Of a stretch of DNA of 64,000 bases, positions 20,063 through 64,000 are shown one piece after another (position 1 is the stretch's first letter; each line of letters begins with the position of its first letter). The translations under genes and the position numbers were made by a program. The notes beneath the pieces are model-generated. The model ran no database searches and had not been told where the DNA came from. It was given only the letters and a program-made list of their open reading frames with translations. The stretch comes from Blasia pusilla (lineage: Eukaryota): NCBI GenBank assembly GCA_050084515.1, contig CM114271.1:46252001-46316000 (forward strand), given 5' to 3'.

Positions 20063-20069
20063 AAGCTAG

Positions 20070-24215: not shown

Positions 24216-24519
24216 AGGATACTGCCATACAATGGGTATAGTATCCAAAGGGGATAACCCAACTGGACCAGAAGTAGGAGTCCATTTGTGGGGCCTCCTC
24301 TTCCTCGTGAGGTATAATGACCTCACACCAAGCCTCTGCACTAGGCGATCGGCCTCCTGCCGTAGTGCACCGCCTGAACTCCAAAGTGGCACATCCAACG
24401 ATGAGGATGCCACTGCTGCAAAAATAGGGACCTCCTCTACCTCCTCATGCGCAGGAGAATCCATAGCAGATACATTACCCTCCAAAAAGTCTCCTGGCCA
24501 AGTGACTACTCCACTAAAA

Positions 24520-25140: not shown

Positions 25141-25399
25141 AACATGTGTAGCAAGAATACCCCACCTTCACACAACGTGGTCGCTAACTGAAATACTGAG
25201 CTAAGTCAACTCCTAAAGCCATCGCCCGTGGCGAAAACAATGGTGATCCAACACCGAAGTTGCCATCCGCATAATCTTGCATTGGATGATGCATCCGTGT
25301 CTACTACACGCGATGTAGATGCCTCGATCCCCACTGTCGGCTCAATAGGTGCGAGGAACCATGGATGGAGTCCTAAGCACCTCAGACAACAAGAATGAC

Positions 25400-26020
25400 C
25401 GGGAAGCCTAGCTCGCCTCCCGCCTCACCCCTCTGTGGGTCCAACTCCACAAGAGCACCACGTGGCTCGACGCCGAGTGGCTCCTCTCAGAATCGTGATG
25501 CCTCAACTTTGTCCGCACTCGCCATATAAGAGAGATCATCCCCTCCATAAGAGGTGGAAGCCCTCGCTCCCGAACCTGATCTATGTTGGATACCGACCAT
25601 AGTAGCCAACTTCTCGCTCCAATCGCCAATCGTGGCGACCATAGTCGACTCCTCGTAGTGGTAGGGGTAGCCACCGTGAGGCTCTCCAACCACCTGGTCC
25701 ACCTCTACCACCCCTACCACCTCTACCACCTCGGCCTCTCGGAGCTACTCCACCACGGCCACGGCCTGATCTCAACTCGGATGAAGATCAAAGCAACGCT
25801 CTCGAGGATGACCTAGTCTCCGCAATGATCACACTGAGTTGGGGCCGATCGAGGCCCATCCTCCAAAGTCCGTCTCCCATCCTCTTGGGGACAAAACTTC
25901 CTAACATGATCACCTCCACATGTCCAACATGATCGTCCCTGGGGCAGCAAATGAAGGCAATGGTCTCTGCACAAATGTCCTCTAGGACTTGACTCGAGGG
26001 CGTGTACCCCCACGACTCCC

Positions 26021-26052
<32 letters not shown>

Positions 26053-27156
26053 GAGACTCTGAGGTGGGCGGCTGAACACGAGAAGTAGTAGTTGTATCCC
26101 TACTGAATGCGGATGTCACCACTCTCTCCTTCACCATGTTAAGCTCAATCTTCTCAGATAGAGCAAACACATGGGTCAATGTGGGTGAATCATCACTCAT
26201 AAGAGTAGCATCACGTACCCTACGGCGCAAATCTCTGTCCAAGATCCCATACCAAAACTGGACTGCCTGATCCTCAATCACACCCTGGGTAACTGAAATC
26301 AAGCGTCACATACGAGTGTATGCCTCACGAAGACTCTCACCAGTTTTTCGCTCAAAGTCCTGAAGATTCCTCAACTTCTCCGTCTTCACTCCCTGATAGT
26401 TCTTCTTCAACCTCTTGAAGAACTCGCAGAATCGGCTAACGATGGTGGGGCACTAGTACCTCCACTAGTACCCCCACTCGGCTCTGCACTGCACCACTTT
26501 CAATGGTCGGGCCGGGCCGGGCATAGTAGGAGCACTACTACCAATACCACCATGGGTGATAGACACATAACTGGAGACCAATATTGTCTCCATGCCTCAA
26601 TCTCAAAGCAACATGGTCCTTCCTAAACTCATGGTAATCATCCATGGGTGGTCCTTCCAAGTCTTTGAAACAACCCTTCCAAGCCAAGAAGGGTGTAAAC
26701 AACGTGCGTTCCGCAACATCCGCATATCACACCACGTATCAAACTCCCGCATGAAGTCCTCCAACTCAATGGTGCCCACTTTGCACCGAGTATCGTCGTG
26801 GGCCCTTCATGGCCCCATATCCACCGTCCATGTCCCAAATCAATGGAGCCGCAACACTCGATAACAACGTAGAAGACTCGGTGTTTGGAACACCCTGGTC
26901 CTCCTCTTCATCAACCGTCGGAAGTGGAAAAGGTAGCCGATACCTAAATCCACTCCGTGTGAAACCACCACTGTCCGCACCACGGTCCCCAACCAGACCA
27001 TCCGACAGCTCCGTGATGACCAACGCCGATGCCGCACCACCACCAAATTACCCAAGTGACGTCGATGTCGCTCTACTATTGTAGCTCTACTAGCTATGGA
27101 TGTAGGCAATCTAACCTTTCATCACTACAAGAAGCCTCCCACGGTCTACTGGTCAT
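25400..27156 (-). pseudogene. E1 gag with CCHC zinc knuckles and an RGG-rich tail, frameshifted
   Basis: CWTCGGDHVRKFC, a second knuckle CDHCG..H.RERC, and RGRGGRGGRGG; lies upstream of protease. Confidence 0.8.
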
Positions 27157-27740
27157 CACTCCAGCCTCACTACCGGTAGCACACAGGAGTAACACTACTC
27201 TGGAAATCAGCGTCAACCCCAACAATGGGCGCGCAAGCAAGAAGCACGATGGAGGGGATCCAAACACAGGAAATCCAACGACAACCCTCCAATCGCAAAT
27301 GGAAATCAAGGTAACACAATCCACCAAACGTGGTGCCCTCTGAATCCACAAAACCCACCACACAATTCTAACGCAATAGCTACTCCGCGCGGGTCGATGA
27401 CGTGCTAGTAACACGCAAAGACCTGAAAATATCACCTGCATGGAGAGGCTACACCGTACTATGCGCTAGAGGTACATCAACCAAAAACCTGAGATGCATA
27501 AAGCGCCTAACACATCTCCGAACAAAGACCAAATGAGCTGTCATGCAGTACATCTGGCATAGTTAAGAACTCGGTAGTTAAGCGTCCTCCAGGCATAATA
27601 GCCCAAAGATGGGTGACCAGTTATGCAAAACTCAAATCCCAAATCCTGAAAAAATTTCCTCACGCCCAAGCAAGCAAGCTTGCTTGCTTGCTCCTTGCTC
27701 CTTACTCCGCCTCTCACGCCCACTCGCCCGAAGCTACCAC

Positions 27741-27780
27741 GAGTTGCCTCGAGTTGCCTCGAGTTGCCTCGAGTTGCCTC
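27741..27780. repeat. (GAGTTGCCTC)x4 tandem repeat in the E1 leader
   Basis: Direct inspection. Confidence 0.9.
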
Positions 27781-28520
27781 GAAACGCCGAGAAATGCTCG
27801 AGACATGCCCCGTTCGCCATGCTTCGCTATGGAGAGAGGTCCAACCAGGGCGCCCCCAATGGGATAGGCGTCTCCAACAATGAACGAGTCACCAACCAAC
27901 CAGCCCCTCCGATCCATCCGGCCCACCATAGCGGACCTTGAGCTAGTCCGCAAAATTTAGATCAGAAATTACTTCACAAATACGTGACCAAATCAAATCT
28001 GTTTGATCAGAATTCAATTGACCACCATAGCTATCTCCCCACAAAACTCAGCTACAACCGAGCTCCGTACTCAAGCTAAAAATCAGACAAACTTGTCTGT
28101 CCATACACCTCTAGAACCAAAACCGACAGGCGCTTCCGCCAAGTTTCATGCACGCAGAAATCCCAACGCTCCACGCACTCGAGCAGATAGCTTCACATGA
28201 GATCACAATACAAGTAGCAATAGGAACCTCTCACCCGATCTGGATGAACTTCAACAGAGCTTCCGCACTCCAAGCTCTCCACATCGAAAAGCGCCGAACA
28301 CGAACAGAATCTTCAATGCTTGATAACTTCCAACTCCCTTGACGAAACCGGCGATCTACAGCGTTGGAAAGCTCTCAGCAAGGCGCTTCTTTCCCAACCA
28401 ACCACGCACCTGATTCACACCTCCAACATAGGCAACAAGCCCGAACATCCACGGCTGAGTACACAATCAGCCCTAACCAGATCCTACTGATCTACAATCC
28501 AAGCTACCATCAATCTACTC

Positions 28521-28532
28521 CAGTTCTTTGAG
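28521..28532 (-). other. E1 primer-binding site (self-priming type)
   Basis: Sense CTCAAAGAACTG abuts the 5' B repeat, is not a TGG-start tRNA PBS, and is exactly complementary to CAGTTCTTTGAG in B. Confidence 0.75.
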
Positions 28533-28931
28533 TGAAATGTGTGAAAGACCTACTGTCATAAAACACGTTTACAATCACATACAATCGAGCCAAACCCACT
28601 CCACGATGGGAGAATCCAGGTCGAAGCTTGCGGGAAATACCATAGCCAAGAGCTCTACTCACTACCAAGGCTAACTCCCAACACAACAGGCTCAACTCAA
28701 AGAACAGTCAGTTCTTTGAGTTGAGCCTCAAAGAACTGACTGTTCTTTGAGTGCACTCCACCTTATATCCTCCAACCTAAGAGCGGGCCCTACTGGGAAA
28801 CTCACCCCCAACTGAGTAACCCCCAACCCTATGTATGGAACCGCATCTCTACCAAGCCACTACGGTCCTACATAAGGAATGACCTCTACTAGCACACTAT
28901 ACTCTACGACATAATCCGTATGGTCATGACA
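28533..28931 (-). repeat. E1 5' B repeat (399 bp)
   Basis: Direct repeat of 19265-19632; flanked externally by the TSD TACG. Confidence 0.95.
28727..28768 (-). promoter_or_regulatory. Putative E1 LTR promoter: TATA box and initiator
   Basis: Sense TATAA starting at 28767, with a CA initiator 30 nt downstream (28738/28737). Confidence 0.6.
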
Positions 28932-31900: not shown

Positions 31901-33473
31901 TTCCCTCCAACGTCTGGGGTTCGGTTCAGTCGGATCAGTCCTTCGCCAAGATCCCGTTCCGTGCTTTCTTTAACCGGAGGAAGTCCTGTGGGGCTCCCAC
32001 TCAGTCAGTCAGTGATCCGGTGATCCCGTGGCGTGCGAAGGGAGTTTGTTCGGATTCATAACTCCCTGCGTCCCTCCCTGGAGGACCTGGAGTAGATGGG
32101 TAACCAATCGTAGCTCTCTGAAGTAGAAGGGAGCTCCACACTCATGATAAGACATTGATTGAAGATCTGTGACAGGATCTGGGTTGTCCTAACCTGCCCA
32201 CTTTGGTCGATTTATGGTGGTGTGTTGTCCTTATCTCTTCGCTAGACATCCACGGACGATTTTCCACAACAACGTTGGAGGATGGATCCAGCCATGAGAG
32301 GGAGGGAGACTAGGAGCTGCCCAACGAATGTCCTTCCTTCATCATCACCTCCATGCGTTCGGTGTCGCCCTCTAATCTTCCTGGATGCAAGGGTCTTTTT
32401 TCAGTTCTCATCTCCCTGGCCGTCCTTGTTTTATGCTCTGGTGTTTTTCTGTCCGGGAGCTAAACAAGTAAACCTCTTCGCTTCCTTGCGCGGGATCATG
32501 ATTAAGACGGCGAATGTCATGCGAGATCAGGGTTCTAATGGGACCTCGTCCGTAAAAATCGAAAACTATCCATACTTCTTTCGAGTTTGGTTTAGAGCTT
32601 ACGCGTTTGAAGAAGTAGCGATGTGGGATAGGGTTTCAAATTTATTATCATATGGGGAAGAGGGTTGGGAGAAAACTACTAGTGAGAAGATGAACCCATC
32701 CGGAAGAAATCGCGAGAGTAACACGGCGGGGAGAAAGTGCAACACAAAGGACTAACAAAAACCTAATTAATACTAATACAGGGGAGTAATTGATATGGAG
32801 AGGATAAAAATGATCGCACGTCCATAAATTCAGGAATGGGGAAATTGTATACTCCAATCTTTATAATAAGGGCCGTACTAATAAGGAGTAAGAAACAATA
32901 AACTTATATTAAGAGCAAAATAATAGCATTGGTCTCATTGTTTATCTATCTTATTTTAAATGTCTTTTAATTTATGTATTCATGGGAGGATTGAGTTTTT
33001 TTTATGTTAACGTTGGTTTCGGACAAAATCCACTACTTTTTTTTCTAAAAATGACCCAATTTTGTGTGGAAATATATTGCTCAAAGGTATTAAAATAGGG
33101 ACACAAGCACCTTATTAGTATAATCGAATGTGAAAATGGATTGCATCCTATGAAAAGAGAAAAAGGAAAAAAAATCATGGAACCATGCGTAATGCGAACA
33201 TGCTCCAATAAAAGTACATATTGAAAATTTTGATACCTAATGTTAGATTCCTACTGCCACTTATGGGATCTCGATCGTTAAGCACAAAAGAGAGAATTTA
33301 AATTATTTTTCATACTTTTACAAACCTTTTCCTTTTTCTGTCACCATGTAAACTCTTTATTAATTTGCATGTTTTGAAAGTTTACAAATGTGAAGGTTTG
33401 CTTTTGAATTTTAGAAGAATACGTGCTCCATGTGAGATCTCCCTCACATTTACTTACATTGTTCTTTTTTAAA

Positions 33474-34064
33474 TAGTAGTGAATCCACTTTATCATAAAA
33501 TAAACCTCAAAAGAGGACAAAGAAAGGTAATAACAATTCAAAAGAGGAGTAAAAAAAATGCATAAAAGAATGCAAAAAGAAAATGGCAACAAGCCCACGT
33601 AAACACCGGCTCAACGAGCAACACGATTGATTGCCTGAAACAAATCTGACAAGAACACGAGTGGTTGGTCGACGTGAATGGACGACAGGCGGCGACCTCC
33701 CACCAACTCCCACGACGACGTATTAATGCCAAGGCTTGTGCACGTTGTAAGGCCACTGAGATGCATTGCCTAAAATAAGTAGTAACAACCGAGAGAGAAG
33801 GACTACGGGAAGGGGCAAGGTGATTGATTCTCGAGGAGTGGTGAGCACATGTTTTCAAGAAAGTATCAAAAGACACATGTAAATGACCGAATACTTCCAC
33901 TGCAAACGGAATAAATCCGTCAGTCGCATGTCTCACAACATAACTTAACTCCTTGATTCTTGCTGCAGCTTCGGCCGCCAAACCTTTGGTATGTGCAGCT
34001 CTACACACCAAGTCAGAACGTGTTGGATCAGCAACCACCACATCACCTAGTGTCTGGAATCCAC
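33474..34064 (-). mobile_element. 5'-truncated copy of the CRE-like non-LTR retrotransposon (RLE C-terminus plus 3' UTR)
   Basis: Near-identical to 37550-38141; translates TLGDVVVADP...KELSY...FIPFAVEVFG. Confidence 0.88.
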
Positions 34065-35320
34065 GAATAAGGACTAAGAGAATGTAAAATACTCTATGAA
34101 TATCATGTATCTTTTTCAAGTGTTGAGAACTTGTTTGAAATTTTTTCATTCATATTTTAATTTTTTTGTCACAATGACGTATAATTTCTAGATTTTTTCT
34201 TCTTAAATTTTGAAACATAAATTTGGAAATATTTAAATTTATTTTCAACCTCCAGTTATTATTGCATATGTGAAATGAGAAAGAATTCTTTTGGTTCAAT
34301 TTTTATTGAAATAATAATCCCTATTTGAATTGAAAATTAGTTCATTTTGTTGATTTGTCAAACTCAAAGTGGGATGTGGATTATTGAGTGTTTTCCTTCC
34401 AAGAAAAAGGAGTAGTGGAACATTTCCGTGATAATCGCAGATACTATTTATTGAGCTATATTCTTTTAAGAGTGAGGGTTCCAAGCTTTATGCCATCTCT
34501 TCTTCCATGTAGGCTACAATGTTCGGAGAGTCTTTCCAAAAAGACAAGAAGGGAAAGAAGATCATAAAAAATGCTCCAAATAACACTATATGGTCCAAAA
34601 AGGGAAGAAAAAACTGAACCTTTATAATAGGATGGTTCAAAGTGTGGGCCAACTTTCTTTGTATGATCCTTTTTCTAATGTATTTAATTATTGTAATCAA
34701 GTTCATATCATACTAATGTAGCATGTCCGTACCATGCACTATATTTCAATACAAAGTTGACGAATGAGAGAGAATAGAATGAGTAAGCGCGTGAGCTAGT
34801 GAAAATGGTGAATGAATAAGGGCGTGACCATAATTCGTCTCTCAAGCCAGACATCTATTGATGGTGAAGCTCAAATGATTTTAGAAATTTCATACATGCA
34901 CACGTCATTTGCTCTAAGCAACAGGGACTACGAGTCTACAACTCTCAACATAACAAAAAAATCACGAATTTCTATCCTTCCATCATTTTTTGCACTAGTT
35001 AGTGCCTTTGCTATGCGCGGAATAAGGAAAAGTCCTCCTTGCAGCCTTTATCTATTAAGATAGTTAGAACTAAGTTATTAGAGATGAAAAATATCACAAC
35101 AAGAGACCCATGAGGAGATGTGTAGAAGAGGGAGATGTTTGTTGTTGACACTCGTGTCACTTTAATTTCTCAATCTCAAAACCCTTATCCCTAACATAGA
35201 GATAGACATAATATTTGCTTGATGATTTCCTTTCTGTTTCTAGACCTTGCACTTTCAGTAAGTGCTTGATCGTTTCTTGAATGCGTCATATCTATCTATC
35301 TCCATCTATCTTTTTTTCTT

Positions 35321-35325
<5 letters not shown>

Positions 35326-35392
<67 letters not shown>

Positions 35393-35400: not shown

Positions 35401-37549
35401 CCAACACAAAAATTAGTCCTCATGGAAAATGTGTATGCTTACATATTAGAGAGTGCTTTCATGAAGGGTAAAGAGGAATTGCATTTGAGATATTGTAGTT
35501 GTAAGGGAGATCATCTCAAGATACTTCTCGCACAATTTGGAGGAAGAATAGGGAGAAGTTTTGGAATATAAAATTATGGTTTTTGGGTCAACAACTTGAC
35601 ACATTAAAGGCAAGAATAGAAGAGGATTACAAAGCTGATCAATGTCAACCATAGTCTAGACCATAGTCTCCACCAAATGTATGGATTCAAATCCATAGAC
35701 TTTGCTCGCACTTGATAAAAAAGCATAAATTTTGGGTTGGATCCAAAGGGTTTTGGGTTGCATTAGGAGACCCTCCAACGATAACTTACCACAAAGGCCT
35801 CGTCCTTGACCTAACCAACCCTTAAAGTGCAATGTTATAAGTTGAGTGTTAACGAAATACAATGGATGTACGAGTCTTAGAGATGACTGATTGTGGTAAG
35901 TAGGAGGTAAGCCAAAAGCAAAAGAATTTCTTTGTTCATTCAACAAGGCACACATTTATAAAATGAGTGATAGGATAAGTAAACGAGCATTTCCCTAACC
36001 CTCGCTTCGAAGTTGCAAGAAGTTAAGTGGCCTTCTCCGAATGAAGAATACTTCATCCATTCACTTCAATGTTGACTTACTTAAGGAGGCTCCTACCCTT
36101 ACGAATATAGATGTAAGAAGATAATGTCGTCTTCTAGAGGGATAGTTGTAACCCCAACAAGATAACTAAGAGCTATCCTTTTAATTCTATGAAGTATTGA
36201 CATAACTTCAATTACCGAAATCCCCATCAGATTGCTTTGAGCTCAATTCTCTCCCATAAGGGAGAAATCCATCCAACACTAAACTGCCATTCAATCCACA
36301 CATATGGACTTCAAATATTAACAAGAAAATCGAATTAATTAAATTTGAAAGAGTACAAAACCTTCTCTCCTATATTCGAATGAAAAACCTACACACCCCA
36401 GGATCATCCCTTTCTATAAACATACCCAGGTGGGCCGGACTCGCCGTGGGCTAGTTTGGGTAGCCCTAATATGACAAAGGGATGATTCGAGACGTGTAAT
36501 TGCCATGCAGAGAACATAGAAGGAAGAGGAAGGGTCCGTTTAAGGTACCACCGCATTAATCGTGTAACACAAGAATCGTACTCTTGGTGGTCCGGTCTCC
36601 AACCCACAGTGAACCACACCCACAGTGGCGGACGATGATTACCCACTACATGCTTTGCGACTACTGTGTAATGAATTCGTGCGATTGCTGACTTGCTATG
36701 AGTCACTCCGGGACAACAGGTGAGCGACATCTGTGATGCAGAGGTACAAACGGGACTTTCCAGGTGCCACGTACTGAAGCATATGACTCGTGACGACGTA
36801 GAGCCTTACAGTTCCTCGACTCTCGAGTGGTAAGTGGTATATATGCGCGCTGGAGTGATATCGCCGCATAGTCCTCGCATTTCTCGCTGAAAGGAATTAA
36901 AAAACAGCGAAAAAAACCGCTCTTGTCCCTCCAAACTCCGACCAGACTTTTGGTTGGAAGGGACGGAAAAACGAAGGTTATATGATTAATTCAGTAGCCG
37001 GCAGCCTTACTTCGTCCATGCATATCTTGGCTCAGTCAACACGTTGCATTGGATGCTTACCGAATGATCCACTGGCGAAACCCCACTACTACATAGGCAT
37101 TAACTCGCGAGGATGCGAAGCTGCAGAAGAAAGATTGCGTTGATGTAAGTAGTGGAAAGTGGGAATGGGAGGGTGTTGCCTTTGACTCGCCCCACTTGAG
37201 AGGGACGAGGGGCCATGAAAGTCCATAAATGCTGGAGAAAATGACGGGCGACTTGATCCGATAATAAACTCCCAGGCCACTAGGACGACAACTATCCTGT
37301 AAACTCGTCGATGAGAACCACGTTGATAAAGGGCTTGACCTAAAGCCTATACTCACATGTCGAAAGGAGTTACCTCGAGGAGGAGGAGGAGGAGGTGTAT
37401 AAGAGGAACCATCGTCTGCTGGGCTACGGAAATCTTCAATTTTCCTTCTCATAGTCCTCTTTTATGCAAAAGTGTGACCAGGAACGTGCCATGGACCATC
37501 GACTCATCTAGTATTGGAGGAGGCATCATATTGTCCTTTTGGGTGCAAC

Positions 37550-40500
37550 TAGTACTGAAACCACTTTATTATAAAATAAACCTCAAAAGAGGACAAAGAA
37601 AGGTAATAACAACTTAAAAGAGGAGTAAAAAAAATGCATAAAAGAATGCAAAAAGAAAATGGCAACAAGCCCACGTAAACACCGGCTCAACGAGCAACAC
37701 GATTGATTGCCTGAAACAAATCTGACAAGAACACGAGTGGTTGGTCAGACGTGAATGGACGACGAGGCGAGCGACCTCCCACCACCTCCGCACGACGTAT
37801 TTATGCCAAGGCTTATGCACGTTGTAAGGCCACTGAGATGCATTGCCTAAAATAAGTAGTAACAACCGAGAGAGAAGGACTACGGGAAGGGGCAAGGTGA
37901 TGATTCTCGAGGGAGTGGTGAGCACATGTTTTCAAGAAAGTATCAAAAGACACATGTAAATGACCGAATACTTCCACTGCAAACGGAATAAATCCGTCAA
38001 TCGCATGTCTCACAGCATAACTTAACTCCTTGATTCTTGCTGCAGCTTCGGCCGCCAAACCTTTGGTATGTGCAGCTCTACACACCAAGTCAGAACGTGT
38101 TGGATCAGCAACCACCACATCACCTAGTGTCCGGAATCCACCTCGAGACATAACAAAATCCACTCTCCGACGAGAGGTTGCTTGTGTGGTTGAAGGTAGG
38201 ATATGGAGTTGCTCTTGCCCAACGGTATATCCTGTCGTACGAGCTACTGAATGTACCGCCTCTCCAATGACATCATGTGTGGCCGTTCGTTCTCCACCAT
38301 GTGCACATCGGAGAATATGGATACCCTTGGCATCAATAGGATCCCTGCATACACAATTTGGCACACCTAAGAGAGAAGGATGGGAAAGTCCAAGACGTAA
38401 CCGCAAAGCTGTCGAGAATATACTTCGAGGAAGACGAAATGGAAGAATAAGAGGATTTGCAGTAAGCCACGCCCCCGCTCCGGTACCAGCACATGAACAT
38501 AGACGAGCTCGATTAGCGTCGGAGGATGCCTCTGAGAGAATGCTAGAAAAGTTTATTTGATGCAGATTCTCGGAGATATGCTCTTGAAGTCGATCAAGCC
38601 CTTCTGTAATTAGTTGACTGAAAGGGGTAGAATTGCTTGTGTAGCAAAAGGAAGAAGAGCTCGTGCATATCTTAGTTGTTGTTGAAATAACAAGTCCCCC
38701 TCCTCGACATGGGCGATATGATCCATCAAGATAGGTGTATCTCCTTGGAGAAACCTTGAAGCCATAATCGGTGCTACCAACGCCCAACTCCCCAAAAAGG
38801 CTGTGGGAGCAGATGTGACTGTGGAGGATAGTCCCACCCCTCCAAAAGAAATAGGCAAGATAGCTTGTCATGAAGCAAAGACACCATCCTCTCCCTCAAA
38901 GGTATTCGGGTCAAGAAGTTGACCAAAAGTTGCCAAGATAGAAGCATCAAAAGAGGCCAGCCGATGTAAGAAGCTTGAAGTGGGAGGACAAGTGCGAAGA
39001 AGGTAGGAAGGATGTCGAAGAAAAAATTGGGAGAGAATCCCATAAGCCACTTGGGTATCCCCAAGATGAGGTAATAAATGAAGCCATTCCACGTCTTTGA
39101 AAAGGGTCTCATCCAAGAACTTTGAGACATAGTCGATGAAGCCAATTGGGAGCTCAAGAACTCTAACCCCTTCAATGTAAATGGGAAAATCAGAGTAGGT
39201 GGGATGAATGTTGAGGGAAGGCATGAAGGAGACCATACTCCACATTTACTAGGTTGGACTTTAAGGTTTAAGAAAGAGAGTTGCTCCACGAAATGGGTAT
39301 AAGCAGGAACCACTTCTGAAGGAGGACCTAAAATGTGAGTGTCATCAGCAATAGAAGGGAAAAGACAAGATGGAAATGCTTGCGCTGATGCTCGAAGGGC
39401 ACGAAAATGGGCAATGGCAAAGAGTGGGCCTCCCATGGGATCACCTTGACGTGTGCCACAAGCCGATTGTAGAATACTATATTCCCAGAAGTAGCATGAT
39501 GGGAAAAGATAATGGGCGTATCATAGGCATAGAAGGAGCAAACAAATGGAATGAGGCTCGCGAGTTGTCCTCCTTCACAACGTAATTCCTCAAAGATGGC
39601 CGCACGAGAAACTGAATTGAATGCGTTAGCCACATCGACTTGAATTGCTACCCAATCTGGATGAATATCAAGAGTGGAGCGAATCCGATGCACCACAGCC
39701 TCACAACCTCCAGGAGTTGCCACTCCAAATTGATGAGGAAATAAGTGGGCACTAAAGTGAGGGCAAAATTGCAAGCATAGTGATCGACTGACCAAGCGGT
39801 ATAAAACCTCTCCAATAGCCAAAGGGCACACACCTGAAGGAGGCTTATCCATAGCCAACAAACGAGAAGCCCCTAAGAGCCTAGAGATAGAGAATGGGAG
39901 ACGACCTGCCGCCATATGTGCACACACCTTATATAGAGAGACAAAGCCACTTGTTGAATATGCTGGGATAAAGCAATCACGGAGATGCTCAAAAACCATC
40001 CCTGATAGCCCGCTTGCTGATAAGCGAGGAGTATGCAGAAAAGCCCTAGTGAGAACCTCCAAGTCAAGGTGCATTTGTATAGTCTTCCACAAAAGATGGA
40101 GCATCGCCACTTGAAGGAGGATGAAGAGCTTCTAAGAGAGCCCCTTTGTTTCCGCACTTGGAACCGCCGGAGAAAGAGGACCCAATGCTCGAGCTGCACG
40201 TGAAAACTCACCAACTTGCCCCAATAGTAGACTTCGTCGAAGGCGTTGTTGTATTGAAGGCCTCCCATGATTGGCATGTTGAGTGGCATGAGCCGCAGCT
40301 AAGGCCTCAACTCGAAGTACATGCTCATTCTGAAGATTCTCCCAATCCCCTGACATAAAGCGTTGAATACGTGTGGAGGTTTCACGATGACCCATTGCAC
40401 CCCCCCTTGGAGGGAGGACTAAAACCCATTGTGGGAAGAGTAGTAGGAGATACCAAGCATTTATATCTGTGGGGTCACGCGCTAACCTTTCTAATGGGAA

Positions 40501-41760
40501 TAGCAAAGCTTGTTGGGTGATGGGGCGAAGAGCAATAGGAATGCGAGTGTAGAGTCTAGGACGAGGAAGACCTGGATGGAAAGAGCGAAGGAGATCAATT
40601 TGGCTTAACTAGGTCCAAGCAGTTGTTGTGGGGAGTGCAGTAGGAGTTGGTATCGGGTTAGGGATTGAAGGCCCATGCATGGATCGACTGACCGATGATG
40701 TCTTTTGATCCCATTAGGAGCAAAGTCCTTACCACAAGGTATGCAACAAACCTTTGGTACAAATGGAGAAGTAGAAGGGTTACAAGGAGAGGAGGTGGGA
40801 GGTGCAAGAGGTGGTGATGGCCGACGATGAGGGGATAAATAGGTTGGGGAAGGAGGAGGAGGAAGAGGGGAGATTCAGGTAGAATAGATGGGAGTTGGAA
40901 GCAAGGGCATAGATGAGATATGTGGGGATGGCAAAGTAGAAGGATTTGATAATAATGGATCAGGATTAGGCTCAATAGGACAAGGCGAAGAAGGGAGAAG
41001 AGGAGAATCCGGAAGAAATGTAGCGAGTGTAATGGGTGTATTAGCATGTGGAGGAAAATGGCGAGATCGACGATGAGGAGGTGAACCAGGGGGAGAGGTT
41101 ACGGCTGTAGGAGGGCGTGTAAAACCAGATAAGCGAGTAGATGGAGAATCCAAATCCATCTTTGATGACATAGAAGTAAAGGTAGGAAAGTCTCCGAAGA
41201 CAAGAAAAGACATACGGAACGTGGTTTGGAGAAAGCATGAGGATAACAAACAAAGCAAAAGTAGTGGAGAGATGAAGATTAGGCAATACTGAATTTATGA
41301 TTGAAAGTTATTATAAGAAAAATATAAAAATTAATTGAAAAGGAAAAGTGATGGATATGGCATCGGAAGATGTGGCTCAAGAATATGAATTTCTAATGTT
41401 CTAAACATATGTAGGGGCGAAACAATAAGGTAAGGAGTTGAAAGAGCAAGGAAGACTTTTGGGAGGAATTGACCTAAAACAAACCCGTACAAAAAAATAG
41501 GCGCCTACAAAGAAGGAATAAAAAGTAGAAAACCTACTTGATATCAAAAGAACGAGCTCGTCAAGAGGATCGAAACAGGCCCAAACACGCCCAAAACCGA
41601 CATTCAAGAAGAAAGTTATGAAAGAAATTGGAAACACCGAAAAAGAGAATGTGGGGGAGGGAGTGAGCCACCCACCAATGACCGCTATGAGGGAATGAGT
41701 TCGTAATGTTGGGCCCATCCCGCATCAAAAGATCCAGAAAAGCAAGAGGAATCCGTTAAA
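37550..41760 (-). mobile_element. Near full-length CRE-like non-LTR retrotransposon (zinc finger, RT, CCHC, restriction-like endonuclease); 5' boundary approximate
   Basis: Single disrupted ORF: CIPCGKDF...IKRHH; PLAIGEVLYRL; HQFGVATPGGCE; DVANAFNSVSR; IADD; CVC..H...C; RRVD..D...K..Y; FIPFAVE. Confidence 0.9.
37750..41170 (-). pseudogene. Disrupted RT-RLE ORF of the CRE-like element
   Basis: ORF fragments 40875..41258, 40132..40506, 39328..40110, 38774..39436, 38868..39245, 38610..38858 and 37813..38871 chain through frameshifts. Confidence 0.88.
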
Positions 41761-41762
41761 CC

Positions 41763-42030
41763 GATGGTAAGCTGGTATCACTCTATAAGGAGAGCGCTAT
41801 GTTTGAAATTGTGTATAGGAATCTATGAGCACATTTAGGAGAGAAGGAGGTCCAAAGATCCCAAGAACTTTGGAAATCTCAATCTTAAGTGGAAAAAAGA
41901 AGAACCCAAAGTTCAAGTTTGAGAAGATGATCACATTGGGCCTTAAATTGAAAAGATTGGATCACCATGGAAATAGTTACAAACAAAATTCTAAACGTCC
42001 GCCATAGTCTTCCTCCATAGTCCTCCTCCT
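41763..42030. repeat. Dispersed repeat, copy of 1061-1320
   Basis: Near-identical sequence. Confidence 0.85.
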
Positions 42031-42672
42031 CCTCAAGCCCCCCTCCAAACCTCCATCCATCAAGTCAAATTCATCATACAAATGGGTGGTGCTTCCTTAA
42101 GCATGAAAGTTTTCTATTTTTAATAGTCTAGTTGAAGTTTGAGCTTGAAACAAAACCATAAACCTTGGTAGATGGACTTTCAAGGACGCGGAGAAGAGAG
42201 TTCGTTTTGTGAAGGTCTCTACATCAAAAGCACAAATGGGATAGTAAGCCTTTACATGGTGGAATTTTGTGAATGTTATTTAAGGGGGTTTGAAGGTTTT
42301 GAAACCTTTCATGGCGAGGGTTTGAGTAGGAAAGGCTTAAATCCATGATGTCAAAGGTTATCCGCAAAGGTACTCATATATAAGTAAAACACATTATATA
42401 CCCATATAACTTTCATCATAAGTCCATAATAATTGGTTGCTATGTACAATTGGGAACCTTGTAACTCTTCTCTTTTTATGATTGAGAAGTTACGTGACTC
42501 ATATTTATGCACATAATCCATCTTGAACAAATTTTTTTTACCAACATAGATAACACAATAAAATTTGAGAGTACTATAGTAAGATCTAATATGTTTGGTG
42601 TTGTCTATTGTACATGTATAATCTTGAGAATGGAATCTTCTAATCCGTGGACGATAAATCTTCTCCTCGGAT

Positions 42673-51774: not shown

Positions 51775-54700
51775 ATGGCCGAATCAAAGCGCAGCTGGCC
51801 ATGGAAGAAGAAATCACAGGAAAAAGTCGCGTCTGCTCCCGATTCGACCGAGTCTTCGCCTCGACCTTCTCCTCACTCATCTAAGTTCTTCGACGAGCAG
51901 GTTTGTTTGGCATCTTGACAGTTTCTGTAGATGTACTCACAACAAGGTCTTACAACTTCCGCAAAAGAAATACGGATTCTTGTCCATAGGGCTACCTCGC
52001 AATCTGTTTGGAAGTTGGAGTATTATTCATCGTTCCAGAAGCGCGTGTCTTATCTAAAATATTTAAATCTTGCAGTGGTGGCATCGACGAGTTTTCGTCC
52101 CAGTGAATGAACATTAATTTTATCAGTTGCCATAAGGAACCACTGATCCAAATATCTGACCTTCACTGAATTACGGTTGTGGATCAGGATGTGTCGAAAG
52201 TCGTAGCAGATCACACTCGTTCCTCCAGTGACGCTCTGGGACAATGGCAACAATCCGAGGCCAAACTTAAGAGCTTGAGCGACAAGTTATCAGTTGCCAT
52301 ATCCGAAATAACAGCGAAGGATAGTCTCGTCAAGCAGCATGCCAAGGTTGCCGACGAAGCAGTCACTGGTGAGATCTCCGTCATCTATAATGTCCAGAAT
52401 TCGGGCCTTTTTTCACTGCTGATGTGATGGCAGCGCCTGTGTATCTGTTAGGCACTAATTGGTGAACCTGTGCTGATCTTGAAGCTGCCTACTCTTCCAG
52501 CTTAAGCTTGTAAACCGTGACAATTAGCAGCGAGATGAGTGGTTTGTTTCACCATGTCTACCGACTTATTGCCCTGTAATTCGATCATACCAATATGAGG
52601 AGAGAGGGTTGTAATTCTCGATCATAGAATTTTGGAACTTACCTGGAGTGAACTCCAACTTGAGAGTTGGGGACAGTATGTCTTGGCGTCTGGTTCAGAT
52701 TCTAGATTTGAACTATTTCAGCCTGTTTTTCCTTCTCTCCTAACGTGAACCGTTGAAGTCGTCATACTCATTCATTCCGAAACTGATGAAGAGTTTCATG
52801 TTCTCTTGAAACAAAGGAATCTTGTAGAAAGTATCGATCATGACCTCGCCCGAGTGCAAGAGCAAATACATTTTTTTAGTGAAATTGTGACCTTGTTTGA
52901 TACAAGTAAAATTTTATGCTGAAGTGGCAAGTGAGATGTTCCTGATCATTTGAGCTCTCTGGAGTCAGGTTGGGAGAAGGCAGAAGCTGAGGCAGCTGCT
53001 CTGAAACAACAACTGGATGTGACAATTCAGCAAAAGTTGGCTACTGAGGACCGAGTCTCTCATCTGGATGGAGCTCTGAAAGAGTGCATGAAGCAACTCA
53101 GGCATGTACGAGAGGAACAGGAGCAAAAGATCCATGAAACGATGGTGAAGAAGACTCGAGAGTACGATAAGCTTCGTCAAGAGATGGAACTGAAACTGTC
53201 CGAGGTCAGCCAGCAATTGCAAGAAGCTCGTTCAGAGGGACTGGAGTCGCGAGGTGAGGCTCGTGCTATGGCGAATGTTCTTCAAGAGAAGACCAAAGCT
53301 TTATCCGAGATTGGCGAGGCGAAAGCACGGGCTGAGGCAGAAGTTAAGATTCTTCAAGTTCGGCTAGACTCACTTGAAAAGGAGAATTCGACATTAAAAT
53401 ACGAATTGCATGTGCTGAACAAGGAGCTCGAGATCCGAAATGAGGAGAGGGAATATGAGAGAAAAGCAACCGATATAGCCAGTAAGCAGCACTTGGAGAA
53501 CGTGAAGAAGATTGCAAAACTGGAGGCAGAGTGCCAAAGGTTGAGGATTCTGGTTCGGAAGAAACTTCCCGGTCCTGCTGCTCTGGCGCAAATGAAGCAG
53601 GAAGTAGATGCGCTTGGAGGTAACAAGGAGTTCGACAGTAAGAGAAGGAGATCTTTGGGTAGAAGTGTCACCTTAAGAGATTCCGATTCTACCAATGAAA
53701 GTCACCATGACAACTTCGCAGATGGTGTCGGAAACAGGGAAGCAGAACTGTTCGCTGAAAGGATGGTGGCGATGGACGATGAACTGAAACTGTTGAAGGA
53801 AGCTCTGGCAAAACGGGACGTGGAACTGCAGGCCTCACGTCTTATGTGTGCAAAGACGGCAAGCAAGCTCTCTCTCGTGGAGGAGCAACTGGAAGCTGCC
53901 GGGAGGAGTGGGAAGTTGAACACTCTGCACATTTCTTCTCAAAGAGACGGTTCAAGAAATGGTGGACTCAAAGATGGCAGTGAGTGCAACTCCGTCGATG
54001 CTTGGGAGGCAGCCTCTGCTTTGGTCGCGGAACTTGACCAATTCAAGAAGGGATCGGACAAGGGGCTTCAATCTACCAAGCTGGATCTCATGGATGACTT
54101 CGCCGAGATGGAAAAATTGGCTATGTCTTCGGAGAAAGCCGAGAAAGAAGTCAACTGTGGGGCAAGGGAAGTGAATTCGGAATTGAAGGAGAAACTTTCT
54201 GCGAAGGAAAGAGAACTGGAAGCAGCCAGTAGCTTGTGTCAAGAATTGAGCCAGAAGCTTGCCAATGCAGAAGCCCACCTCGTTGCTGTTCAAGCTCGAA
54301 ATGGCGCCAACGAATCAGCTTTAATCAGGCTTCAAGAGAAACTAGACACCCTCAGTGAAACAAACAACGAGGAGGGTGCTAACATCACAAAGGCTTTGGA
54401 AGAGCTTGTCGAAGCCCAGTCCATCTCTTTGAGAAATGGGGTCGCTAACGAATCGGCGGCTCTTTATGAACTTGAAGAGGGAAGTCAGAATGGCACACGG
54501 CTGACAAATGGACGCAGGACTCCGATGGGATCGCATAGTTCATCTGAAGTGGGATATGAAGCGAATGAAGACCTTGCTTCTGTGCTGTCTGATGCGGAGT
54601 CCAAGGCCAGTACCATGGGGTCTGACATGCTGACCACTCTCCGCAGAGTGGTACGAGCTGTTGAAGCTTTAGCACAGGCAACTGGTTCAGAACATGAGGT

Positions 54701-56698
54701 TACCAATAAATCCAAGCAGCTGTCCAGTCCTTCAAGACACAATAGAGCAGGCCAGGACGTCCGGGTTGTTCCTTTCATACACTGGAAGAACGTGGAGCTC
54801 GATGGCAACATGCAAGGGCTTATAGTGATGAGCAATAAGGTTGTCCAAGGGAAAGCAGACATGGTGGACTTCCTCGGAGAACTAACGTCGGTTCTCAACT
54901 TCTTAGTGAATGTCTGCACTCGCAACGTAGATCAGCTCGTTGAGTCCATCGAGAGTCAGTCAGATGGTGCTAACACAAGAGAGAAGGAAGAGGCTCTCAG
55001 GAGAGTTCGCTCTGAGAAGGCTGCTCTAGAATCTCACATGCGAGCTGAAATGAGCCGTTTAGCGGGTATAGAGGGAGAATTAGAGACGACCAAGAGAGAA
55101 AAAGCAGAATTACAGAGATATTTGGACGATGCTAATGAAAGGCTGGAAGTGACAATGAAGCAGTTGAGGGAAGCCGAGAAAGTTGCCTCTGAAGTTCATG
55201 GCTCGCAACAACACATAGAAAATGAGCTACATGAGTTGTCTACCTCTAAGGCAGAACTGGACAGGGAAATGCTCACTCTGCACAAGAAAATAGCCAGCCT
55301 CGAAGGGGAACTACAAGCAGAGAGACGACGACATCAAGAGGTTGTGAGCAAGTATCACGATCTCCAGCAACAAGTTCACAAGTAAGGACTTGATTTTGTC
55401 GTCTATTCACTTGCCAGACATAGTGAAGTATGAGGAACGGAGGAATGTCAACTTTGCGTTTGGAGTACTGACGGAGGATGTCCTGATCGGTGGACTCTAA
55501 CTTAATTATCTCCTCCTGCAATCGATGTGCAGTGTCGGAAGTGATAGCTCTGCTGGCTCGTTGACAAGGGAGGGTGATTGGCGACATCAATCTGTTGACG
55601 ATGGAGATCTCCGCTTGCGAAAGGTCGGAAGCTGAAACTGTGTCCGACCAAGTGTATATAAGTCCTCATGGCACGGGTTTTGTTTCTTTCTTCATGACGG
55701 CCACGGGCCTTAGCATTGTTTTCTCATGATGACTATCTCGTCTAGGATTTTGCTTGGACATCGATTTTCTGGAACCCCCTAATTCGACTCAGGACCCGTC
55801 ATATTTGCAAGCGTCCTTTGTGGAGAGATTCCCGGGATCACGATAAGTTCACTTGTCGAGGCATTTGATTGCAGGGAATATAGAGACAGTATCTCGTTAT
55901 TTCACTTCAGAAATCACTTCACTAACAGGTTGTTCCAATCTTCAGGAGCGGGAGATATCTTCTGCGGCAGAGAAGCTCGCTGAATGTCAACGCTCCATTC
56001 TGGATCTAGGAAAGCAGCTCAAAGCCTTAACTTCACCTCGCGAATCCCTGGATGTGTCTTATGAGTCTGATACTGCATCTTCCATCGACAGAATCACTCT
56101 TAATGGCGGTCATCGCGCCATGCAAATGCAGCCCGAAGAAAGCCAATCGGAAACGAACGGGAACTCTGAGAAGCACGAGCGTACACCGTCCGGCGGGTCC
56201 AGAGAAGAGAGCACTCCATGGAGCACCCCTAGAGGGAATTCGATCTCAGGCAGTCCATTTGTTGATAGGAGAAGAAGTCCAAGCCCCAGTCCTCCTCAGG
56301 TAAACCTGGGAGCAGCTTCGAACGGCCACCACCATCCAAGCCCTGTTTACACTAGACTGTCTCAGGATTTCAAGCAGGCCAATGGATTCCATTCAGGAAA
56401 CGGGGCCAATGGCAACGGCGTCAGCAATGGTGCGGGAAGCTATCACTATGGAAGTCCCATGGCCGCGCCAGCTCCCTCAGAATTCTCTCTTGTGGGATCT
56501 CTCTCTGTACCAGCCTCTCCTGCGAGATCTCCAGCATCCGCCTTGCCTTTTAGACCTCGTGGTACGAGCCCTATGAGGTCGGACTTCTCGAACTCGTCGA
56601 GTAGTGGAAATGGCACCAAGGAAGCGGACTCTGAGTCGAGTACGACGAGCTTCAGTAGGTTTTATGCAAGAACCAAGAGCAGCAGCCGTTCAGACTGA
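51775..56698 (+). CDS. FPP: Filament-like plant protein (long coiled-coil FPP family), 5 coding exons, about 1187 aa
   Basis: join(51775..51900,52188..52368,52969..55381,55533..55623,55946..56698) = 3564 nt, all introns GT-AG and phase-consistent. FPP motifs: KRSWPWKKKS, KQHAKVADEAVTGWEKAEAEA, LDGALKECMKQLR, KLEAECQRLRILVRKKLPGPAALAQMK, LMDDFAEMEKLA, AAEKLAECQRSILDLGKQLKAL. Confidence 0.93.
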
Positions 56699-60358: not shown

Positions 60359-61127
60359 TTTCGTGCGCATACACATCGCTACACAATATACATCGCTATC
60401 ACCGAACACACACATAAACATGCACGATCCCATGCTAACTCATCGCATCCAAACAACGAGACAAGAAGTACTAAAATATCTCCAATACAGTAAGATCCAA
60501 TCTCTTTCTACACCATCTCACACCATAGCTCTCAAAGGTGTGCACTCTCTCTCATGTCAAACCAAACCCAGTCTCCTAATGAGAGGCTTGGGTTACACTC
60601 ACAAGGCAAGGGACCATAGCTTCGCCGCCTCATGCCAAGAGGTTCAACAAAGAGAGAATGAGCTCTCAAGCTTTCTCTCCTTGAGGTATACCCCTCCCCT
60701 CTCCCAAGCTCTCTCCATGGTAACCTATTCTCCCAAATCACCTCCTTGGCTCTTGAATTGATGTAGGAGGTCAAGGGCCACTTACCAAACATAGAAAGTT
60801 GATCATATACTCAAAATGGTACTCACCTAAAATAGTAAGTTTCTCAATATTGCTCCAAATGAGCCGAAACGAAGGGGAAACCTGCTCTCTCAGGTTTCTC
60901 GGGGCCTCAACAAGTCATCCTTGACCTACTGAGCGTGTCCTCCACTACTCAAAAAGGTGCTCTAATAGATCTCACCGATATATCCTAAAAGACGTGATAA
61001 TTGTTGTGCGCATACACATCGTTATACAACATACATCGCTGTCACCGAACACACACACAAACACGCACAATCCCATGCTAACTCATGGCATCCAAACAAC
61101 CAGACAAGAAGTACGAAAATATCTCCA
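60359..61127 (-). repeat. A-B-A split terminal repeat of E3
   Basis: 126-bp direct repeats 60359-60484 and 61002-61127 flank B. Confidence 0.9.
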
Positions 61128-61314
61128 ATCGCCCCCCTAGCTGGTGCTTAGGTCCCTCTAACTCCAGATAGCCATCTATTCCTTCCTACCATGACATACA
61201 TCTCTCGGACACTAAGAGCAAGAAGGCCGGGTGCTCATGTGGGCCCATCATTAGTCGCCTTCTTGTCATCCATGTCACATAAAAAGTCAGAATTGAAACC
61301 TGCCTAGTATCTCC

Positions 61315-62740
61315 TCTATGTACATCTAGGACACATCCATCTTCCTTGAGGAACCCTAGTGAGAGGTGGCGTCAGACATGCCATATGCCAACCTCTCGAA
61401 CATCCATCAGAGACTAGCATCATGGCCGCTCTACGGGCAGGGTACCACACAACATACAACGCAAGCCTACATGAACTATTGCTAAGCTCAGATCTACTGT
61501 ACCATCAATGTTAGGAAGGTGACATGGCGCACAATTACGCACATGGTCCTTCCATACCATACCATCGCGTCCCTCCAGCAAGAGAACACCGGATGGCAAA
61601 ACGTCACGCACTCTCAGGATAGTGCGCCCTGCAATCACATCCAACGTCGTCACTGTCGTCTGCTGCAAGTAGACGTAATCTTCCTGATGAAACCTCCGGA
61701 TAGTTGGTCGATAACCACCACCCCGAATAGTCGCATACCTCAACGTATCCGGATGTTGCGCAATCGCCAAGTTCTCGAACGCCATGGGCATCACTCTCTG
61801 AAACAACTCAGCCCTCTGAGAACATGCTCGTATCCATACATCTAGGTCATCAAGGTCCAGCACTTCACCAGCATCTCGACGAATGGCCGCAGGTAAATCT
61901 GGCTCTTGGCCATAAAGTAGCAAGTACTATGAAAAAGACACTAAGGATGCCTGCTTGTTGAATCTGTATCCCATCGCCAACCAGTGCAATTGGAGGTCCC
62001 AATCTCTTAGGTGACCTCTCTGCAAGCCATACTTGCGTAAACCCCTCTTCACCGTCTGCACAACTCTCTCCGCTAATCCATCCGCCTCGGGATGATCTCG
62101 CGAAGTCATGCGATGGTCGATCAGCGCCTGATCACACAAGGCTTGGAACTCACTTCGAAACTGAATACCCTGGTCTGTCAACACCTCAGCCAGTGCGCCA
62201 TAATGACTCATCACTCTATCAAGGAAGGTATAAGCTATTCCCTTACTTGCTTTGTCAGGCAATGCAACCAACTCGATCCACTTCGAGAAGTGCTCGACCA
62301 TCACCAACACGACTGTGACGCTCCGTCAAAGGCAAAAGTCCTGCAAAATCTAAACTCCATCTATACCCTAAGCCCATGATCGGTAATGGATGCAACTGTG
62401 GAGTTAGAGCATTGAATGATGCTCGGAACCAATCACACACCATGCACATGGCAAAAAACTGGTGAACGTCAGTCTGCATGCCTCGCCACCAAATCTGAAT
62501 CTGGAGCAAGCAGTACGTCCGCTTCACCCCAAAGTGACCCAACTCCTCATGGGCATGCTGCACTAGTCGTGCTCTATGCAAAGGATGCGGCACTATGCGT
62601 ACTCTTCCATCCTCCCAAACCCTCAAAACATGTGTCCCCTCCCAACGGAACCGTCTGGCCCGCTGTAGGATCCGATTCCGCCACGGTGCTCGCAAGGCTT
62701 CCAGTACGAAGGTACTCCAAGACTACTCCATCATCATGAA
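61315..62740 (-). pseudogene. E3 integrase plus PHD finger, frameshifted
   Basis: HAHEELGH...CMVC; WSLDFAG; VLTDQG; HPEADGLAERVVQTVKRGL; CMLCG...GCSRGWHMACLTPPL...WMCPRC. Confidence 0.92.
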
Positions 62741-62993
62741 TATCTCGGCCATCTGTCGTCTCCTCATTGGCCTCGGGATCCAAGGACTCTCTACTAGACC
62801 TCGCCATCAAAGTCTCCACACTCTGGCTCTCCATAGCCAACATGCCTAAATAGGTTGACGTGTGCCATCCTGGCAGTGACTCCTCATCACTCTCTCCATG
62901 CCATCGAGCTCCAGTCGCATCTCGCTGACTCGGGCATGGGTTACGACTCAACCCATCTGCATCCTGGTTGAGCGTCCCAGGTCTATGTACCAG

Positions 62994-64000
62994 CTAAAAA
63001 TCATACTCTTGCAACAACAAAGCCCATCTCGCAAGCTTCCATGTAAGCTTGTCGGACTCCATCAACCACTTCAGTGGTTGATGATCAGTGATGACGGTAA
63101 AGGGATTTCCGAATAAGTAACACATGAAATGCGCGACAACCCACACTGTAGCCAAGCACTCACCCTCATACAAGCTATACTTTGCCTCTGTAGCATTGTT
63201 TGAGCGGCTAGCGTAAGCCACCACGAACTCTCTACCCTCATCATCATGCTGGGTGAGCACCGCTCGAAGCCCCAACATGCTCCAATCTGTGTGCAACTGG
63301 AAAGGACGCCTCCTGATTGGTCTCCTCAAGATGGACGCGAACGTTAACCTGTCCTTGAGCAACTGAAATGCTCGTTCCTACTCACCCCCTTGTACAACTC
63401 GTGATCCACCTTGGTCAGCAAGGTCAGCGGCTTTGCAATCGAACTGAATCCCTTGACGTACCACCGATAGAAGTTCTCCAATCCCATGAATGCGCGAACA
63501 CGGCTCACATCTGTAGGGCATGGAATGCATGAGATAGCCTCTACCTTTGTTTGTTGAACACCAAGGCCCCATGGGTATATTGTATGACCAAAGTACTCAA
63601 TCTGGTCGTAGAAGAACTTGCACTTGCCTTGATGTAGCTTCAGCCCATGTAATTGCAATCGTCAAAACACCTCCTCTAGATGTCGCTCATGCTCCTCAAC
63701 CGTGGCGCTAAAGACTACGATGTCATCAATATAACACCTAGCAAAATCCAAACCAACCAAGATCCTATCCATGACCCTCTGAAACTCATCCGGGGCATTC
63801 TTTAACCCAAATGATAAGAACCGCCTCTGTAACAAACAATCCTTCCCGTGAGGATCGATGCCCCAAAATGCCGTCTTCTGCCTGTCCTCCAATCTGATAG
63901 GCAGCTGATGGTATCCAAATCGCAAATCCAATGAACTAAAAACCTTTCCATGACCAATCGCATCAAAGATCTCCTCAGGGGTGGGCATGGCATACCTATC
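62994..64000 (-). pseudogene. E3 RT and RNase H, frameshifted
   Basis: DLRFGYHQL; FGLKNAP..FQRVMD; CYIDD; FQLHTDWS; TDHQPLKWL. Confidence 0.93.

Follow-up and report, generated by a model that had tools for sequence, protein, structure and literature searches.

KnitGypsy-Dnmt3, a retrotransposon of the charophyte alga Klebsormidium nitens (de Mendoza 2018), combines Gypsy domains with a Dnmt3-type cytosine methyltransferase inside Pol (PMC5890265), and its repeats are described as the same as those of a DIRS retrotransposon (PMC5890265, Fig. 4c legend). The DIRS layout is defined in the same paper as A-coding region-B-A-B (PMC5890265, Fig. 1e legend), and the acquisition of Dnmt3 is framed there as specific to the K. 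nitens lineage (PMC5890265). The passages of that paper on which we draw give no account of the ends of KnitGypsy-Dnmt3, its target duplication, its polypurine tract (PPT) and primer-binding site (PBS), or its mechanism. Here we describe three retrotransposon copies, E1, E2 and E3, in a stretch of 64,000 nucleotides of Blasia pusilla DNA (contig CM114271.1; hereafter the window). Their layout, B...A-B-A, is that of KnitGypsy-Dnmt3 with the letters swapped, and likewise accompanies Gypsy domains and a DNA methyltransferase (DNMT) in Pol; they come, however, from liverwort-like and moss-like DNA and have a PHD finger, a term absent from the main text of PMC5890265. The window elements are thus land-plant members of a known, barely described and mechanistically unexplained kind. 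New here are integrase-type ends with a target duplication, a conflict between the boundaries of reverse transcription and those of integration, and the spread of the layout across bryophyte families. No K. nitens protein was present among the word-indexed homologue matches, a weak negative, and the likeness described here is one of layout and domains. In the full-text literature, with subscription journals and Repbase reports outside its scope, we found neither a later paper naming KnitGypsy-Dnmt3 nor a description of the layout in bryophytes.

Elements of the DIRS order with split repeats (PAT-like, Ngaro, TOC1) resemble the window elements, as far as the passages used here describe them, in that a single repeat stands at the 5' end while the 3' end bears three in a row, of which the internal pair copies the joined termini. 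A methyltransferase domain is also found in many of them. In contrast to the window elements, they encode a tyrosine recombinase, are believed to integrate from a circular form and leave no duplication of the integrase type. The window elements have a DDE integrase, TG..CA ends and a 4-bp duplication (the last in one element), and it is Gypsy-type Pfam families that their reverse transcriptase (RT), RNase H and integrase match. Split direct repeats pass for a hallmark of retroelements with a tyrosine recombinase, and what they do in replication is still largely a matter of models. Day (1988) and Goodwin and Poulter (2004) are said to deal with split-direct-repeat elements of the DIRS order. 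For DIRS-1's internal complementary region (ICR), the role as a copy of the joined termini has been shown experimentally, according to the part of PMC7192593 used here. TOC1 of Chlamydomonas, the classic case of an "unusual arrangement of LTRs" (long terminal repeats), is now treated as a non-autonomous DIRS element in the passage concerned (PMC9940879).

With canonical Ty3/gypsy elements the window elements share the order RT-RNase H-integrase, a gag zinc knuckle, a PPT, TG..CA ends and a short target duplication. They differ from these in that E1 lacks two identical LTRs (B stands alone on its 5' side, A-B-A on its 3' side), in the DNMT located between protease region and RT, and in a PHD finger that takes the place of the chromodomain of chromoviruses.

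The complete element and two further termini

E1 (19159-28931, minus strand) is the sole complete element of the window and reads B, internal region, PPT, A, a 3-nt spacer, B, A. Its parts, from 5' to 3', are:

28935-28932, minus: 5' flank CGTA (reads ..AACGTA)
28931-28533, minus: B1, the lone 5' copy of B; begins TGTCATGACC, ends CATTTCA
28532-28523, minus: CTCAAAGAAC, candidate self-priming primer-binding site, directly after B1
between CTCAAAGAAC and the coding region, minus: leader of about 1.7 kb
about 26831-19918, minus: decayed coding region with gag (CCHC), DNMT3-like domain, RT, RNase H, integrase and PHD
19751-19743, minus: PPT AGGGGGGCG
19742-19636, minus: A1; begins AGTTGTGG, ends ACGACA
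19635-19633, minus: spacer ATT
19632-19266, minus: B2; begins TGTCATGACC, ends CATTTC
19265-19159, minus: A2; begins AGTTGTGG, ends ..CGCACGACA
19158-19155, minus: 3' flank CGTA (reads CGTACATT)

The termini of E1 are of the TG..CA type (TGTCATG....CGACA), with a terminal inverted repeat of 7 nt (TGTCATG/TGTCGTG), and CGTA on both sides constitutes a target duplication of 4 bp, or of 5 bp (ACGTA) if the last A belongs to the target. No A adjoins B1, and BLAST detected no third copy of A in E1. A1 and A2 are identical at 105 of 107 positions and B1 and B2 show no mismatch over their first 213 nt, which indicates that the repeats are renewed in each cycle from one template. The last 155 nt of B1 and B2 differ at four positions, and B1 has a 31-nt insertion there. 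Copies of the E1 family are very numerous (250,086 Logan contigs matched in run X1 and 3,999 in X5), but the contigs are not long enough for the succession of A, B and internal region to be read in the other copies.

The order PPT, A, B, A had been proposed in an earlier note, made from the letters of the window, for the 3' ends of E3 (60359-61140, minus) and E2 (285-1060, plus). Direct reading, a repeat finder and BLAST all bore this out, and the features concerned are:

61316-64000, minus: E3 coding remnant, frameshifted and truncated at the edge of the window; RT, RNase H, integrase H2C2 and rve, integrase C-terminal region, PHD finger
61140-61133, minus: E3 PPT GGGGGGCG, directly upstream of A1
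61132-61002, minus: E3 A1
61001-61000, minus: E3 spacer AT at the A/B junction
60999-60487, minus: E3 B; begins TATCACG; holds a TATA-like GGTATACC, then a short hairpin
60486-60359, minus: E3 A2, the terminal A copy; ends ..GCGCACGAAA
60358-60355, minus: E3 flank CTAG
3-113, plus: E2 end of the coding region, PHD finger tail
285-292, plus: E2 PPT AGGGGGCG
293-417(420), plus: E2 A1
418-421, plus: E2 type-2 junction CACG-GCGG
422-933, plus: E2 B
934-1060, plus: E2 A2; ends ..GCGCACGACA
1061-1064, plus: E2 flank GATG

BLAST and the repeat finder gave 91.9% identity over 124 nt between A1 and A2 of E3 and 94.5% over 127 nt between those of E2, and the B copies of E2 and E3 are 91.8% identical over 512 nt (BLAST), values far above chance. 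B measures about 512 nt. The 126 bp given earlier for A becomes 127-131 nt here, the exact figure depending on whether one includes the terminal ACA and the 2 nt that follow the PPT. Also as stated earlier, B of E2/E3 is not alignable to that of E1 (no BLAST match at E <= 1e-3). The final ~64 nt of A are 77-81% identical between the E1 family and the E2/E3 family.

In a four-way alignment of A, the two E2 copies share GGTT, the lack of an extra A, and CATG, and the two E3 copies share the alternatives; the final few bases excepted, A1-type and A2-type copies cannot be told apart at any position. These element-specific variants indicate that both copies of A derive from one template per transposition and were identical at insertion, as LTRs are. 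The right boundary of E2 is independently supported by its flank, because positions 1061-1337 have a 94.6% identical paralogue at 41763-42036 and the similarity starts exactly at GATGG. E2 was thus inserted within repeated sequence, whose second copy in the window serves as an empty-site proxy for the 3' boundary. No paralogues of the E1 or E3 flanks that could serve as empty sites were found in the window or in the metagenome loci described below.

Encoded proteins and spread of the layout

Open reading frames (ORFs) of E1 and E3 match the Pfam families RVT_1, RT_RNaseH, Integrase_H2C2, rve and PHD, with RT, RNase H and DDE integrase following one another in Gypsy-type order along the sense strand of both elements. 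On E1, tblastn placed gag, DNMT, RT, RNase H, integrase and PHD collinearly. The E1 ORF at 23694-24533, between the protease region and RT, has no Pfam match itself and weakly resembles the DNMT3A motif I region (E 0.03). Longer homologues of this ORF number 24, from Marchantia, Calypogeia, Sphagnum and unnamed sources, and 18 of them contain PF00145; the protein P0070 has the order DNMT, RT, RNase H. These homologues (proteins P0060-P0082) thus indicate that Gypsy-DNMT elements are present in bryophytes. The predicted DNMT3-like domain of E1 (23287-24533, minus) is decayed, and what we say of a DNMT concerns E1, since the corresponding region of E2 and E3 lies outside the window. The E3 ORF for the integrase C-terminal region has 59 longer homologous proteins, mostly with rve plus PHD, the best named ones belonging to Marchantia polymorpha (79%), Calypogeia fissa and Sphagnum fallax. 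Together, these results identify E1, E2 and E3 as decayed copies of a bryophyte lineage of the Ty3/gypsy type with gag, protease region, DNMT3-like domain, RT, RNase H, DDE integrase and PHD finger.

The PHD finger at the C-terminus of the integrase (61316-61504, minus; 3-113, plus; 19918-20226, minus) is kept in relatives down to ~40% identity and may direct integration to marked chromatin.

These proteins bear on the idea that the elements are moved in trans by the tyrosine recombinase of true DIRS elements and that their own integrase is irrelevant. Such mobilization would account for a repeat layout identical to the DIRS-order A-coding-B-A-B, as given in the passages used of PMC5890265 and PMC7192593. 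However, the TG..CA ends and 4-bp duplication of E1 are the signature of a DDE integrase, and integrase and PHD finger are conserved across families down to 41% identity. Nor did any of the 55 E1 ORFs of at least 70 aa match a tyrosine recombinase family at E <= 0.01, and no tyrosine recombinase was present among the 11 other large ORFs scanned. We regard mobilization in trans as extremely improbable.

A metagenome scan with the integrase C-terminal region yielded 11 loci. Merging of near-identical ones (L003/L004/L005, L007/L011 and L009/L010) left seven distinct loci, five of them with a readable 3' end, and three of the five (L001, L003 and L009) have PPT-A-B-A. They represent three further families with 74%, 60% and 41% integrase identity:

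L001: A 107 nt, copies 98% identical; junction ACGACA-GT-TGTCATGAC
L003: A 98 nt, copies 80% identical; B begins TGACATGAG
L009: A ~93 nt; junction GATA-GT-TGTCATGATT; partial 5' B 7.5 kb upstream

In the 5' B of L009 only the final ~210-310 nt are recognizable (73% identity), and the B-start motif was not found upstream in this locus; a 5' B of L003/L005 was not found within 10 kb upstream. Excluded from the counts were L006, which ends 214 nt past the integrase match, and L007/L011, with one degenerate A-like stretch. Window and metagenome together thus give A-B-A in 6 of 8 scorable 3' ends, from five families. No relatives were detected in viral or genome contig collections, either by protein or by the pattern of the PPT region.

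The complete E1, the element-specific variants of A, the three further families and the published Klebsormidium family all support the view, put forward in the earlier note, that the B...A-B-A structure is heritable and lineage-wide. An assembly artefact or one-off rearrangement was rejected, the three window copies differing by 2-12% and carrying private variants.

The two remaining readable 3' ends, L002 (583-700) and L008 (370-480), belong to the L001 family and have PPT-A followed by unrelated DNA, without B-A. They may be real unit-length or permuted insertions, or the result of short-read collapse of a 107-nt repeat; since the metagenome contigs all break inside the element, such collapse is indistinguishable from a real B-internal-A or B-A-B-internal-A. 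The L008 flank begins CA-TGTCATG, which is junction-like.

Ends of this sort are what would be expected if the elements were ordinary Gypsy elements with a short LTR consisting of A, B being a 5' leader, and if the A-B-A ends and the missing 5' A were secondary products of aberrant reverse transcripts or of tandem or recombined copies. A does obey the classical rules, with a PPT directly upstream, TG..CA ends and, 2-3 nt later, a conserved motif at the position of a PBS. But in E1 the 5' boundary is the start of B, with CGTA on both sides and B-start and A-end forming the 7-nt inverted repeat; B1 is never preceded by an A, and a third A is lacking in E1. Moreover, the same "aberration" would have to have arisen in 6 of 8 scorable ends from five families and in the published alga family, and L002 and L008, being short-read metagenome contigs broken within the element, could easily have lost a 107-nt repeat by collapse. 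We therefore consider an LTR consisting of A highly unlikely.

Two further observations concern relatives. About 2.5 kb of AT-rich low-complexity DNA lies between the PHD stop and the PPT of L003 (10610-13080) and represents inserted sequence or else a 3' untranslated region of great length. In the window, tblastn aligned the gag and mid-region of P0061, a Gypsy-DNMT protein of Marchantia, over short stretches at 11582-11774 and 13932-14330 (plus); these mark a fourth, heavily decayed relative with no recognizable A or B.

Boundaries, junctions and a possible route to integration

In all six A-B-A termini (E1, E2, E3, L001, L003 and L009) A begins directly after the G-run, the position at which plus-strand DNA is expected to start. 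The other boundary is informative in E1, where the end of B directly precedes CTCAAAGAAC, a 10-nt perfect complement of GTTCTTTGAG inside B; GTTCTTTGAG itself lies ~28 nt downstream of TATAAGG. CTCAAAGAAC occurs seven times in the window against 0.29 expected, all seven in E1 B copies or directly after B1, and is a candidate self-priming primer-binding site next to U5. Elements of the Tf1/sushi group are self-priming, with a primer site complementary to the start of their RNA, and E1 would resemble them in that its putative primer site is complementary to the predicted RNA start. The 31-nt insertion found only in B1 (28706-28736, minus) is the reverse complement of the adjacent hairpin CTCAAAGAAC-AGTCA-GTTCTTTGAG and is located exactly at the predicted transcript start and self-primer.

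With A starting at the PPT and, in E1, B ending at the candidate primer site, the LTR made by reverse transcription should be A-spacer-B. The integrated ends, B-start and A-end, lie inside A-spacer-B, so that the integrated copy is the expected product rotated by one A; in canonical Ty3/gypsy elements, in contrast, the integrated ends do not lie inside the unit that reverse transcription would build. CA is present at the end of B in E1 only and at the end of A in E1, E2 and L001; its restriction at the B-end fits the view that the ends made by reverse transcription are not integrase substrates.

The A-end motif ..GCGCACGACA and the B-start TGTCATGA recur across families despite the otherwise unalignable B. 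The junction of the two within the 3' end has the form GACA-N2-3-TGTC in E1, L001 and L009. In E3 it is decayed: the sense strand reads CGCAC-AACA-AT-TATCACG (AACAATTATC), two G>A changes from GACAATTGTC. The E2 junction, CACG-GCGG-TATCACG, departs from the GACA/TGTC palindrome. Thus the palindrome noticed earlier stands for E1, L001 and L009, with E3 two changes away as had been stated, but does not extend to E2. The junctions in the window are located at:

412-426, plus: E2 A/B junction
19629-19641, minus: E1 A/B junction
60996-61007, minus: E3 A/B junction

The following route would reconcile the two sets of boundaries. Reverse transcription would build an ordinary linear DNA with A-spacer-B as its LTR, and the ends of this linear DNA would not be used for integration. 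Instead, each LTR would hold ready-made integrase ends in its interior, the A-end ..GACA and the B-start TGTC.., placed head to head as at a circle junction. The integrating DNA would be topologically a 2-LTR circle (a circle-equivalent), formed either by end joining or by a templated restoration as proposed for DIRS, and the DDE integrase would open it at the junction of the 5' LTR to give B...A-B-A. Only in this product would a B with the promoter remain upstream, a full A-B (U3 and R) be kept close to the 3' end of the RNA and the A end stay competent for integrase, which would make it the form that propagates. Sequences downstream of poly(A) sites are often GU-rich; A, as read from E2 and E1, is GU-rich, which would explain the need for an A after B2. 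Retroviral integrases (foamy virus, HIV-1) can cut the palindromic junction of a 2-LTR circle to give integration-competent ends. The junction proposed here is similarly a head-to-head CA/TG joint cleavable by a DDE integrase, but the retroviral reaction is a side pathway acting on a junction of cDNA ends, whereas here the junction would be built into every LTR and its use obligatory. We tentatively favor opening of a circle-equivalent at the built-in A/B junction, to which we give slightly less than an even chance.

Several points weigh against this route. It is deduced from boundaries alone, and the data contain neither circles nor cDNA ends, transcript starts or poly(A) sites. Since the A/B junction is present twice in a 2-LTR circle, cleavage at the second, or at both, would be expected to yield B-A-B-internal-A, unit-length B-internal-A and solo B-A; L002 and L008 may be such forms or assembly collapses, and no certain example was found. 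The target duplication is seen in the one complete element available (1/1), where a 4-nt match has a chance of 1/256, and the self-priming site could be checked in one of one usable 5' end. The uneven divergence between B1 and B2 of E1, which by hand arithmetic has a chance of ~0.03 if mutations fall evenly, is a poorer fit to strict LTR identity. Finally, both families contain two types of A/B junction, GACA-N2-3-TGTC and CACG-GCGG-TATCA, separated by almost nothing but A/G differences. The second type lacks CA/TG and so could not supply the ..ACGACA end of E2; this duality fits no model that we tried.

An RNA fold of 28505-28700 was no better than shuffled sequences (z -0.21), the chosen start having cut the partner sequence of CTCAAAGAAC. 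Other E1-family copies offer variants of the junctions. Among the matches listed, several contigs carry the junction letters GCGGTA, single contigs have small deletions with filler exactly at the joint of B-end and A-start (19265->19305 with 7 other letters; 19250->19293 with 3), and one passes from unrelated sequence into the start of B at 19632/3. The deletions and the entry into B are known from single contigs of 88% likeness and give weak support to a circle-equivalent.

The main rival to a circle-equivalent is a templated restoration of the DIRS type, in which no circle is formed: RT would make the full B...A-B-A directly by extra template switches, and integrase would insert linear DNA. 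The RNA would start inside B1 and end in or after A2. The minus strand would be primed at the start of B2, 2-3 nt after the CA of A1 and hence at the normal position of a primer-binding site, and would copy A1, switch to A2, then proceed through B2, A1 and the internal region to the 5' end of the RNA, where a switch from B1 to B2 would supply again the 5' portion that B lacks. The uneven divergence of B1 and B2 fits a separate inheritance of B's 3' portion, and the spacing of A-end, 2-3 nt and B-start is the usual layout of U5, spacer and PBS. GGTATCA (7 nt) of the type-2 junction presumably recurs in the usual primer site for plant initiator tRNA; against priming by a tRNA, the start of B lacks an initial TGG and so cannot match the 3' end of any tRNA. 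In the internal A-spacer-B the joined termini are copied exactly, a role that the DIRS models assign to the ICR or to the B1-A2 repeat (PMC7192593, in the part used here). Such a copy is consistent with both restoration of the DIRS type and a circle-equivalent. What restoration would require is an unforced switch from A1 to A2, and it offers no reason for A to start exactly at the PPT or for B to end at a self-complementary site. In addition, the variants shared by A1 and A2 over their whole length bar inheritance of A2 via the RNA, unless the RNA ends at the start of A2. Direct synthesis of B...A-B-A is thus, in our estimation, rather unlikely.

If the opening of a circle-equivalent is correct, its wider reading would be a streptophyte-wide lineage of DDE-integrase retrotransposons with an obligatory circle-equivalent intermediate. 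Their split repeats would be independent of tyrosine recombinases, having originated, or been retained, alongside a methyltransferase in DIRS and Gypsy elements alike, which would hint that methylation of cDNA is tied to this mode of replication. We put this forward as a speculation that is doubtful as a whole. The results suggest that the split-repeat layout is a general solution for restoring termini and not a by-product of tyrosine recombination, and that the Gypsy-DNMT lineage is older and wider than one alga. They also suggest that LTR tools requiring two identical LTRs will mis-call or split these abundant bryophyte elements. The PPT at the start of A, the putative primer site at the end of B and the head-to-head GACA/TGTC junction are landmarks that make the mechanism testable.

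Other contents of the window

The window consists of eukaryotic DNA rich in transposons and contains at least one plant gene. This gene, for a filament-like plant protein (PF05911, E 3e-158), occupies 52935-56698 (plus) and has two long exons lying between transposons. Direct repeats of ~600 nt at 33471-34064 and 37547-38141 are 97-99% identical and 4.08 kb apart; weak RT-like ORFs at 37813-40608 (minus; RVT_1, E 2e-4 to 9e-4) adjoin them and belong to a different kind of retroelement. Overlapping inverted matches of ~70 nt at 2-nt steps connect 14346-14438 with 35291-35365, which points to a microsatellite of the dinucleotide type at both places.

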